A DNA stretch of 64,000 nucleotides from Parcubacteria group bacterium Athens0714_12. GTDB taxonomy: Bacteria > Patescibacteriota > Patescibacteriia > UBA2591 > VMGY01. Within the stretch, counting starts at the first letter, position 1; the number at the start of each line of letters is the position of its first letter. The DNA is taken from contig VMGY01000001.1 of the NCBI GenBank assembly GCA_007378955.1, forward strand, positions 38,804 through 102,803. Reading direction: 5' to 3'. A model generated the notes under the pieces. It ran no database searches. It saw nothing but the letters and a program-made list of their open reading frames with translations, and was not told where the DNA came from. A program made the position numbers and the translations under genes. Shown here piece after piece: positions 25,168 to 27,665 of this stretch.

Positions 25168-25947
25168 TTAAAAAAGAGTTTTGCGGTTATATTTTCTTTC
25201 TTCCTCGCCGGCTGCCGCGCGATAACGGCAAAAATCGCAATCAGGCGAAGCGCCGGGAATATTGTCGCTCATTAAACATTTGCGCGCTTCAAGTAAAACG
25301 TTTTCAATCCAAGAATCATCGCCTTTATAAGGGATTAATTCAATATCAAATTCTAATTTGGCGTCAAAAGCCTTACAGTCTGTTTTGCCATTGCAATAAA
25401 CAAAATAACCAACCGGCGAAACTTGGTAGCCATTTTGGCGAAAAAGCCATTGATAAATTTCCATCTGCCTCTTATAGCCAATCTGCCAATCCGCGTCCAA
25501 GTTTAACTGCCCTGTTTTTGAAGTCGCTTTGTAATCAACAATGATAAATTCTCCCTTTGGATTAACCCAAAGGTCGTCAATTCCGCCGGTAACAAAAAAA
25601 TTGCTCGGCTTGTGCAAAAAAGCGATTCCGCCGCGCAAAGCGTCTCGCCAAAAATCCAATTCTTTATGCGCCAAAGGCACCGCGTCAAGGCCATAAGTTT
25701 TCATTAAAGGATGGATTGTATTTTTTGCCCGATGAAGGTCAAATTCTTTTTTGAGCAACGCGTCAACCGCGGAATTAAGGGTGAAAGGATAACCCGGCGG
25801 CTGGCCGACGCCCAATCGCCTGTCAAGATAAAAACAGCGCGGACAATTCAAAAATAAATCAATTTTTGAACGGCTTAATCTGAAAGGATATTTTGAATTC
25901 GGGTCAAATAAATTCGATTTTCTTTTAGGGGTATAATATTTTGACAT
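25168..25947 (-). CDS. PD-(D/E)XK nuclease-superfamily protein (Cas4/RecB-nuclease-like) with cysteine clusters
   Basis: 'GIDDLW' and 'IVDYKATSK' fit the D...D/ExK core. Cysteines occur at the N-terminus 'CPRC' and the C-terminus 'CDFC', as in Fe-S Cas4/AddB nuclease domains. Confidence 0.6.
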   Translation of the reverse strand: MSKYYTPKRKSNLFDPNSKYPFRLSRSKIDLFLNCPRCFYLDRRLGVGQPPGYPFTLNSAVDALLKKEFDLHRAKNTIHPLMKTYGLDAVPLAHKELDFWRDALRGGIAFLHKPSNFFVTGGIDDLWVNPKGEFIIVDYKATSKTGQLNLDADWQIGYKRQMEIYQWLFRQNGYQVSPVGYFVYCNGKTDCKAFDAKLEFDIELIPYKGDDSWIENVLLEARKCLMSDNIPGASPDCDFCRYRAAAGEEERKYNRKTLF

Positions 25948-25968
25948 ATGATTATTGAACAGTTAAAA

Positions 25969-26003
25969 TTTGATTGATAATTGATAATTGATAATTGATA
26001 ATT
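25969..26003. repeat. Tandem heptamer (TTGATAA)x~4.5, followed by a GCGATAA-aaaa-TTATCGC hairpin
   Basis: The repeat is visible by direct reading and lies in the intergenic space between the nuclease and helicase genes. Confidence 0.6.
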
Positions 26004-26024
26004 TTCACGTTTTGCGATAAAAAA

Positions 26025-27665
26025 TTATCGCGCGTCAGATTCTTTCAAAAACAGCCGCGCGAGGCGCAGTTCGCGGTAGGAAAAACTTTCGCCGAGAATC
26101 TCGCGGACCACCGTCAATCTCGTATCCCCGGTCTCCTTAAAAACATTTTTTATTAATTCAAACCTTTTGCCCCATGGCCGCAAATATGACAAATCAAGGT
26201 TTTCATCCCGCTCAATTAATTTTTCCAGATGCCCTAAAATCGTATCCTCGGTCAAGCCGCGCTTTTCGGCAATTTCTTTAATGGAAAATTTTTGTAAAAC
26301 TAACATTTCCGTTTCCTCATATGTTGAAACGGATTTTAATTTTTCCGCCGGCGCGACAGATTTTAAAAATTCTTCCTGATTTTTTTCTTTTTCCAATTGG
26401 TTTAATTTTCTTAATCCAATACTAACCATCTCTGACATTCGCATTAATTCTTTATCTAATAATAACACTTCTTCATTGACTTGAAGAGCGATCTGATTCA
26501 AGCCCATCAATTTCAATCCCTCAAATGAGCGGACCCGCGAAAGCGCGACATAACCCATTCCTTCAACAAATGATTTGGAAAGGTCAATTTCCACCGCGTC
26601 CAAGCTCATCCCCTGGCTTTTATGCACGGTGATTGCCCAGGCCAAACGAAGCGGTATTTGGATAATTTCCGCTTTCGCCATCCCCTCTTCTTCTATCCGC
26701 CAGCTTTCCGGGCCGGCGATTATTTCTTTTCCTGTTTTACAAACCCGTACCACGGGAAAACCGTCTTCGTCAAAATCTTCAACTATACCAAGAGTGCCGT
26801 TCACGTAGCCTTTGTCAAAATTATTTTTAACAAACATCACCGCCGCTCCCCTTTTAAGTCGCAATTCCTCCGGCGCAAGACAGTTTTTTTTGAGAAAAGC
26901 CGCCAATTTTTTGTTGCCGCGGCTAGTCGCGAAATATGTTTTCATCTCTCCGCCAAGCGCTTCAAGATTTTTCTTATTGATAATATCAACATCAATATTA
27001 TGCGTGTAAAGTTTGGTCGCGGTAGAAAAATTTCGCGGACTTTTTTGGTATCTTTCTCTTAAAAATGACAATGTCCGCTCTCCCGCCTTATTCGCCCTGA
27101 TGTCGTTTAAGACTTTGATTAAAACGTCATCGCCCTGCCGATACTGCTCGCTTAAATAACAAATCTTTAAATTCATTTCCTGCCATATTTTTGATTTATT
27201 GGCAAAAGTTCTTTCCGTGCTGTTTTTTGAAACCGGTGGCAATTGAAAAAAATCTCCGCAAAGGACGACTTGCATACCGCCGAATGGCCGATTGTCTTTT
27301 TTGAAAGCCCGGCATACTTTATCAACCAAATCCAAATAAAAATAATGAAGCATGGAAACTTCATCGATGATTAAAACTTTGGTTTTTTCAAACCTTTTGG
27401 CGAGATAACGTTTTTTTGAAAGATCGCTGATTTCTCTTTCAGACATACTCTCTTTTATGCCGATTCCCGCCCAAGAATGAATCGTGATGCCATTCAGATG
27501 CGTGGCGGCAATTCCCGTGGAAGCGGTAACGCCGACGCCGACGCCCTTATTTTTTAAAAAATCAATATAAGCGTTAAGCGCGAATGTCTTCCCGCTTCCG
27601 GCCGGTCCAGTCAAAAAAACATTTTTTCCTAATTTTAATATTTCCAACGCCTCTTTTTGTGTCAT
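26025..27665 (-). CDS. Pif1/RecD-like SF1 DNA helicase with a C-terminal helicase-HTH domain
   Basis: Walker A 'GPAGSGKT', Walker B 'VLIIDEVSM', and 'VHKSQGMS' (motif VI-like). The C-terminal HTH reads '[21 protein letters not shown]'. Confidence 0.8.
   Translation of the reverse strand: [546 protein letters not shown]

Follow-up and report, generated by a model that had tools for sequence, protein, structure and literature searches.

The helicase and nuclease genes that lie side by side in the window (the whole 64-kb stretch of DNA analysed here) are, with a probability of about 0.7, two independent and widely conserved chromosome-maintenance genes of the CPR/Patescibacteria, which are neighbours by chance in this one lineage. 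In none of 160 related genomes or loci did the two genes adjoin each other; hence their position probably reflects an ordinary, idiosyncratic chance adjacency rather than a helicase-nuclease machine or an anti-phage system. The pair as it was originally flagged matters little; a candidate defence or resection module is removed. The following features were analyzed.

25168..25947, minus strand: stand-alone Cas4/Dna2-like PD-(D/E)XK (RecB-family) nuclease, 259 aa
25948..26024, minus strand: spacer between the helicase and nuclease genes, 77 nt
26025..27665, minus strand: Pif1-family SF1B DNA helicase, 546 aa; residues 1 to ~410 form the core including the 2B/SH3 domain, residues 448-537 the C-terminal HTH_40 domain
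27666..27724, minus strand: region upstream of the helicase gene, covered by sequence, inverted-repeat and operator scans

Both open reading frames occupy exactly these coordinates on the same strand, as the sequence-only reading had reported. It had also described the larger protein as an SF1 helicase with Walker A and B motifs and a C-terminal HTH domain, and this description was confirmed. The protein matched the Pfam families PIF1 (PF05970; 144.6 bits, cutoff 25.9, 4.6e-42), Pif1_2B_dom (35.1 bits, cutoff 23.9, 1e-8) and HTH_40 (1.2e-19, residues 448-537). Among solved structures human PIF1 (6hpt; E=6.4e-76) is the closest relative, and the Walker A/B motifs and the Pif1 signature motif, located between helicase motifs II and III, align with it; DEVSM is present. 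Bacteroides Pif1 was matched with E=6e-49. The previous label "Pif1/RecD-like" is correct in its first half only: the scores for RecD2 (TIGR01448, 90.1 bits) and RecD (TIGR01447, 50.6 bits) are below the respective cutoffs of 500 and 310. The protein is a bona fide Pif1-family SF1B helicase and not a RecD or RecD2. It has the core, the Walker A/B motifs, the signature motif and the 2B/SH3 domain in common with human PIF1, yeast Pif1/Rrm3 and the Pif1 proteins of Bacteroides and thermophiles, but it carries a C-terminal HTH_40 domain in place of the WYL or N-terminal domains that have been studied. Orthologues across the CPR are 49-67% identical; their lengths are bimodal (~410-460 aa and ~500-600 aa) and HTH_40 is missing in about half of them.

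The assignment of the smaller protein to the PD-(D/E)XK nucleases was equally borne out (Pfam PDDEXK_1, 1.9e-12). All 35 orthologues share its RecB-family catalytic motifs, D124/D125, D138-Y-K140 and Q161xxxY165, without variation; the catalytic triad, the loss of which had been considered beforehand, is intact. In a fold comparison with solved members the Dna2 and Cas4 nuclease domains were nearest, and the nuclease domains of AddAB, AdnAB and RecBCD were also structural neighbours. Sequence searches against solved structures with phmmer and with a 35-sequence profile gave nothing significant. The score against the Cas4 equivalog TIGR00372 was 26.9 bits, below the cutoff of 65, and the Pfam search returned no match to PF01930.

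The arrangement of cysteines in this protein is not the canonical one. In Cas4 and AddB one N-terminal Cys is combined with a CxxCx5C motif. The window nuclease has the pattern C35xxC38...C224...C237xxC240, in which all five residues are invariant in 35 orthologues, and there is no further Cys beyond C240, including positions +5/+6. The N- and C-terminal CxxC pairs noticed in the sequence-only reading are therefore real, but the CxxC...CxxC pattern departs from that of Cas4/AddB to which it had been likened. The five residues constitute a probable metal or Fe-S site. The C-terminal tail of the window protein ends with ...RKTLF. An exact LF terminus after a Lys/Pro-rich basic linker was found in 12/80 species and 17/120 homologues, and several of these orthologues terminate as QxxLF; the DnaE from the same genome carries a similar QVNLF. 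In this minority of orthologues, window protein included, the tail is probably a clamp-binding-like element. Fusion partners across the nuclease family (NUDIX, HD_4, TIR+GYF, DUF2779 and a tandem duplication) were considered as a functional clue, but they are heterogeneous and gave no information.

Solo-Cas4/Cas4-like PF12705 nucleases have been reported from CPR genomes by Hudaiberdiev et al. 2017 (PMC5704561); these solo-Cas4 genes are common in the CPR and uncharacterised (PMC5704561). The window nuclease belongs to this known "solo Cas4-like" group. Like its other members it is a stand-alone RecB-family protein of ~250 aa with conserved Cys and lies outside CRISPR loci; both are over-represented in small-genome CPR bacteria and have no conserved context. 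The clade of the window nuclease differs from solo-Cas4 in that it scores below the Cas4 equivalog threshold, has CxxC...C...CxxC in place of C...CxxCx5C, is unusually conserved (~65-75% identity across CPR classes) and is sometimes LF-tailed.

The linkage of the two genes was analyzed in two surveys. The first comprised 80 species-level genomes with a nuclease 63-73% identical to that of the window, the loci being picked as best nuclease matches; the second comprised 80 metagenomic helicase loci with a mean total flank of ~6.9 kb. A Pif1 gene adjoined the nuclease in none of the 80 nuclease loci (0/80), and no nuclease was found near the helicase in the 80 helicase loci (0/80). Any Pif1-like match within ±8 kb of the nuclease occurred in 5/80 loci, slightly more than the ~2 expected by chance. 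The biggest neighbour cluster around the nuclease covered only 5-6/80 loci, and no strongly conserved neighbour of the helicase was found in the 80 metagenomic loci. The closest relatives of each gene (P0122, P0002 and P0003) are without the partner gene. Two of the loci (L080 and L115) apparently belong to one 154,523-bp contig, on which both genes are present, ~23 kb apart. Proteins that fuse the helicase to the nuclease family were not seen among the homologues. The earlier reading had left open that the two genes sit together elsewhere or are even universally syntenic in the CPR; the surveys show that their synteny is not conserved.

Each gene alone is nevertheless widespread. The nuclease is 63-76% identical in at least 588 GTDB species genomes, including Parcubacteria, Microgenomates, Berkelbacteria and others. 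Other window genes that turned up in the same loci are just 30-62% identical, albeit in a comparison biased by the choice of loci as best nuclease matches. Horizontal spread within the CPR could account for part of the high nuclease identity. The wide conservation of each gene on its own favours a role in core DNA maintenance over one in defence.

The short spacer was scanned for promoters and terminators, and neither was found in convincing form in the 77 nt. The scan gave only a weak hairpin (26069-26055) inside the 3' end of the helicase gene and a 9/12 promoter-like match. Tandem Repeats Finder detected a perfect 4.4x tandem heptamer in the spacer (ATTGATA on the plus strand, 25973-26003). 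A short spacer with no clear terminator suggests co-transcription, which is probable for the two genes in the window genome. The upstream region of the helicase contains a -10-like TATAAT (27718-27713, minus strand) and a near-palindrome (27690-27710). A structured element at 27725-27896 had no match in Rfam at gathering or E<=1 thresholds.

SOS control of the two genes was considered as well. The upstream regions of lexA in the window and in two other loci (L025 and L086) contain a direct repeat, TTTCGG-N5-TTCGG, as the candidate CPR LexA operator, with a looser TTTC-N7-TTTC version in a further locus (L143). A scan over 1.8 Mb of loci located this operator upstream of lexA; in front of the nuclease and helicase orthologues it did not occur systematically, and the helicase upstream region of the window lacks it. 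The scan gives no support for SOS control of either gene.

The sequence-only reading had compared the pair with a split, minimal AddAB/RecD2-type resection module. The two proteins might cooperate as a split minimal machine for end resection or flap processing even though their genes are usually unlinked in the CPR, either as a Pif1-Dna2 analogue or in a RecD2/AddB-like manner, in which the helicase would unwind 5'->3' and feed single-stranded DNA to the Fe-S nuclease. The domain calls are correct, and repair-type biochemistry is reasonable for each of the two proteins. The missing synteny is compatible with such cooperation because gene order is poorly conserved in the CPR generally, and both the slight excess of nearby Pif1-like genes and the spacer that suggests co-transcription point in the same direction. 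However, adjacency was not conserved across 160 loci, there is no fusion protein and no shared regulatory motif, and the idea draws solely on an analogy with eukaryotes. The eukaryotic Dna2 is a nuclease-helicase with Pif1 as its genetic partner, whereas the nuclease and helicase of the window are separate, normally unlinked genes with no evidence of cooperation; furthermore, the Dna2 helicase is Upf1-like while the window motor belongs to the Pif1 clade. The latter is also not of the SF1A type found in AddA/RecB. AddAB, AdnAB and RecBCD have RecB-type nuclease domains like that of the window protein, with Fe-S clusters in AddB and AdnAB, but these are fused to SF1A-type motors or to helicase domains that have been inactivated, and conserved operons encode the resulting obligate heterodimers. 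The window nuclease is not fused, its motor neighbour is SF1B, and the pair has no conserved operon. Together, these results make cooperation of this kind unlikely, and the resection module proposed earlier is not sustained.

It is highly improbable that the pair is a two-gene anti-phage system, with the helicase as sensor/motor and the nuclease as effector, in a defence island with the R-M cassette. Many defence systems do pair a PD-(D/E)XK nuclease with a helicase, one distant member of the nuclease family is fused to a TIR domain, and the cassette lies ~600 bp from the two genes and is transcribed divergently. The "R-M island" described beforehand consists, however, of only two genes, a LexA-methyltransferase fusion and a MutH-like nuclease; elsewhere the 64-kb window carries housekeeping genes (DnaE, ThrRS, DnaX, tRNA-Gln, FtsW, FtsA, NrdD, GatB, HisRS and MiaA/B). 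The same cassette occurs in other places without the helicase or the nuclease. Because of this and of the housekeeping neighbourhood the defence-island argument fails. PADLOC gave only generic partial matches of 27-68 bits (RecD-like, 68 bits; Cas4, 27-31 bits), which reflect domain homology, and no system-specific profile match for the helicase or nuclease was found in PADLOC-DB. Defence genes are patchy and fast-evolving, whereas these two are highly conserved in hundreds of species. The absence of recurrence in the 80 nuclease and 80 helicase loci largely refutes a defence function of the pair.

A phage or mobile-element origin of the nuclease was also rejected: tblastn gave no match in 50,697 phage records and the PHROG matches were weak. 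The absence from the phage records also argues against a genuine CRISPR-adaptation Cas4, or an exonuclease from a phage recombination module, with the helicase as a mobile-element partner. The score below the Cas4 equivalog cutoff and the non-canonical Cys pattern speak against it too; furthermore, the 64-kb window contains no CRISPR array or cas gene, and there is no conserved cas neighbour of the nuclease in 80 loci. We consider this origin extremely improbable.

As two independent maintenance genes, the helicase and the nuclease can each be given a tentative role. By analogy with the characterised Pif1 enzymes the helicase would be a 5'->3' SF1B enzyme, most likely with an accessory role in replication or repair, in which flaps, structured DNA or protein blocks would be cleared. 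For the nuclease, from the RecB/Cas4/Dna2 branch, the likeliest activity is to thread a free end of single-stranded DNA and then to degrade or trim it; this would correspond to 5'-end or flap processing in replication or recombinational repair. Judged from the sequence, the N- and C-terminal parts of the nuclease are probably joined by a metal or Fe-S "staple" with cysteine ligands, and in the LF-tailed subset, window protein included, the flexible C-terminal tail probably docks the enzyme on the sliding clamp. A more ambitious proposal, which we regard as distinctly improbable, is that the CPR possess in this nuclease a near-universal Dna2/Exo5-like 5'-end/flap enzyme, tethered to the clamp, that works with the equally widespread, eukaryote-like Pif1 in a bacterial Pif1-Dna2 axis. 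If true, the eukaryotic Pif1-Dna2 axis would have a bacterial counterpart in lineages with minimal repair toolkits. The searchable literature contained nothing relevant on CPR end-resection machinery or on CPR Pif1. The conserved solo Cas4/Dna2-like nuclease is a tractable biochemical target for DNA maintenance in reduced genomes; its points of interest are the non-canonical Cys arrangement and the occasional clamp-binding-type tail.

The neighbouring LexA-methyltransferase/MutH-like pair is a mobile two-gene cassette with a recurrent fusion, and it is more unusual than the helicase-nuclease pair. A description of this combination was not found in the searchable literature. The LexA-methyltransferase fusion would tie the control of restriction-modification to SOS-type autocleavage.

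Analysis of the helicase gene and its neighbour indicated, with a probability of roughly 0.7, that they are two independent, conserved DNA-maintenance genes of candidate-phyla-radiation (CPR) bacteria, which became adjacent through a lineage-specific rearrangement. They are arranged as follows:

26025..27665, minus strand: Pif1-family helicase, ORF of 546 aa, upstream member of the pair
25168..25947, minus strand: PD-(D/E)XK nuclease, ORF of 259 aa, downstream member of the pair

The window comes from a CPR/Patescibacteria genome, and both proteins have 100% matches in 'Parcubacteria group bacterium Athens1014_10'. 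The helicase matched Pfam PIF1 with 144.6 bits; it also has the Pif1 2B domain and, at its C-terminus (residues 448-537), an HTH_40 domain. Among solved structures it is closest to human PIF1 (E=6.4e-76) and yeast Pif1 (1e-72), with bacterial Pif1 proteins behind (~1e-49); the alignment takes in Walker A, Walker B and the Pif1 signature motif. The protein is a genuine Pif1-family SF1B helicase. The sequence-only reading had described a 546-aa 'Pif1/RecD-like' SF1 helicase with Walker A/B motifs and a C-terminal helicase-HTH domain. Its coordinates were exact, and the domains and the Pif1 half of the name hold; judged by the NCBIfam thresholds, it is neither RecD nor RecD2. CPR metagenomes and MAGs contain many orthologues with 49-67% identity, of which about half have no HTH_40 extension.

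The predicted 259-aa nuclease on the helicase's strand was likewise found at its exact coordinates and matched PDDEXK_1 with 48 bits. Cas4 profiles match it weakly (TIGR00372 26.9 bits, cutoff 65; PADLOC Cas4 models 24-31 bits), and no PDB relative was detectable from sequence, even by profile search. The AlphaFold model is confident (pLDDT 87, pTM 0.85). An alignment of 35 orthologous sequences bore out the catalytic residues, with the RecB-family motifs D124/D125, D138-Y-K140 and Q161xxxY165 invariant. The same is true for five cysteines (C35, C38, C224, C237 and C240), so the proposed N- and C-terminal Cys pairs are real. Their likeness to Cas4/AddB is incomplete, however: the canonical pattern of Cas4, AddB and Dna2 is C...CxxCx5C, whereas the nuclease has CxxC...C...CxxC. 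The protein is a divergent member of the RecB/Cas4/Dna2 class of nucleases, which thread ssDNA ends. Solo-Cas4 genes have been described before as frequent in CPR genomes and uncharacterised (Hudaiberdiev et al., PMC5704561).

Co-transcription of the two genes is likely, because the 77-nt spacer between them contains no terminator or promoter of convincing quality. The spacer is occupied by a perfect 4.4x tandem heptamer (ATTGATA, 25973-26003), which is among the three top-scoring short tandem repeats of the window.

On the other side of the helicase gene, positions 27725-27896 hold a multi-branched inverted-repeat element of ~130 nt, which is closed by a 17-bp stem and has three hairpins inside. 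Read along the minus strand, a terminator-like hairpin (27739-27725) comes next, a short way upstream of the helicase -10 box. The element occurs once in the window, has a folding z-score of ~-8.7 on either strand and matched nothing in Rfam, even with hits up to E<=1 admitted; a small RNA and a MITE-like element are possible identities. Its stem contains 2.7 copies of the unit ATTTCGT (27873-27891), which is also the unit of a repeat at 39894-39950, where about six copies of ATTTCGTA lie directly upstream of a MiaB-like gene.

The pair had been proposed to form a module, in either repair or defence. This is not supported by synteny. Among 80 species-level genome loci with nuclease orthologues (63-73% identical, out of at least 588 matches) none had an adjacent Pif1 gene; a Pif1-like match within +-8 kb occurred in only five, each time 2.7-5.6 kb away. 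Clustering of all neighbours in these loci revealed no conserved neighbour (largest cluster 5-6/80). Conversely, none of 80 metagenomic helicase loci, with a mean flank of ~6.9 kb, had the nuclease nearby, and no neighbour of the helicase is strongly conserved. Among the matches listed, the closest helicase relative (67% identity) is flanked by a GH130 gene and an unknown gene, and the closest nuclease relatives (75-76%) have no helicase alongside. Two loci, L080 and L115, are apparently one contig, judging from their identical size of 154,523 bp, and there the two genes are ~23 kb apart. Fusions do not join the families either: the top 120 helicase homologues contain no PD-(D/E)XK domain, and the fusion partners of long nuclease-family proteins are NUDIX, HD, TIR/GYF, DUF2779 or a second nuclease copy, never a helicase. 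Functional cooperation of the two proteins, by analogy with Pif1-Dna2, is unlikely and unsupported.

The defence reading drew on an R-M cassette beside the pair:

28291..29760, plus strand: LexA-methyltransferase fusion, a single ORF with a complete LexA and a beta-class N6-adenine DNA methyltransferase
29774..30418, plus strand: MutH/Sau3AI-N-like nuclease, 214 aa, directly after the fusion ORF

This cassette moves independently of helicase and nuclease and so builds no defence island around the pair; the entire 64-kb window is housekeeping (DnaE, ThrRS, DnaX, tRNA-Gln, FtsW, FtsA, NrdD, GatB, HisRS, MiaA/B, HtrA). In PADLOC the two genes matched only through generic SF1 and Cas4 homology. 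Neither a CRISPR array nor a cas gene is present in the window, and 50,697 phage records contained no relative of the nuclease. Both genes are widespread and strongly conserved; the nuclease retains ~65-75% identity across Parcubacteria, Microgenomates, Berkelbacteria and others, against 30-62% for other window genes in the same loci, a comparison biased by the choice of loci as best nuclease matches. Together, these features fit core DNA maintenance but not a defence system of patchy occurrence and fast evolution; a role of the pair in defence is very improbable. As originally flagged, the pair is of little interest.

The C-terminus of the nuclease also bears on its role. Where an extension is present, it is a Lys/Pro-rich linker that mostly terminates exactly in LF (12/80 species, 17/120 homologues), as in QAVLF, QVTLF, QKSSLF and, in the window, RKTLF. 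The species-level cases are:

LF-tailed nuclease genes: loci L002, L005, L022, L023, L027, L028, L038, L039, L059, L066, L067, L072

These tails are similar to QxxLF, the motif by which bacterial proteins bind the beta-clamp, and to QVNLF, which the genome's own DnaE carries at the usual internal site. From this resemblance we infer that the nuclease may act on chromosomal DNA in a role coupled to replication or repair. One orthologue (L040, 8001-8969) has, instead of the LF tail, a candidate FtsK-gamma-like winged helix, judged by eye.

The LexA-methyltransferase fusion is real and recurrent. Its LexA part comprises a DNA-binding domain and S24 peptidase (TIGR00498 184 bits, above cutoff), and the architecture is common to >120 protein clusters, which come from several CPR lineages. 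Across 20 aligned members the Ala-Gly of the LexA cleavage site, the Ser/Lys dyad and the methyltransferase DPPY motif do not vary. In 3/4 independent loci the MutH-like gene comes directly after the fusion, and a serine recombinase or RadC is often close by; no description of the cassette was found in the searchable literature. GATC is depleted in the window (52 observed, 168 expected, O/E 0.31), a pattern consistent with the MutH/Sau3AI-like nuclease having restricted DNA specifically at GATC over a long time; TCGA (0.21) and CTAG (0.28) are also under-represented.

The promoter region of the fusion (28170-28213) contains a perfect DnaA-box sequence, TGTGGATAA, and then a direct repeat, TTTCGGTGAATGTTCGG, against the -10 box. 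Upstream of stand-alone lexA genes, L025 and L086 show the matching combination of TTATCCAC and TTTCGG repeat with an 11-nt period. In all three cases TTTCGG-N5-TTCGG abuts the -10 box; L143 has a looser TTTC-N7-TTTC variant. The region is a candidate CPR LexA operator, and its direct repeat is consistent with the recognition of a direct repeat by Patescibacteria LexA (PMC7739468). Such repeats are not systematic upstream of nuclease or helicase orthologues and are missing upstream of the window helicase; SOS control of the two genes is therefore unsupported.

Elsewhere in the window, a VirD4/TrwB-like coupling ATPase (32852-35140, minus strand, 762 aa) and a surface protein of 1566 aa (57229-61929, minus strand), whose N-terminus is T4SS-pilin-like and which has Ig-like and NHL/beta-propeller repeats, may belong to a type-IV-like apparatus of CPR bacteria, for secretion, as a pilus or for DNA uptake.
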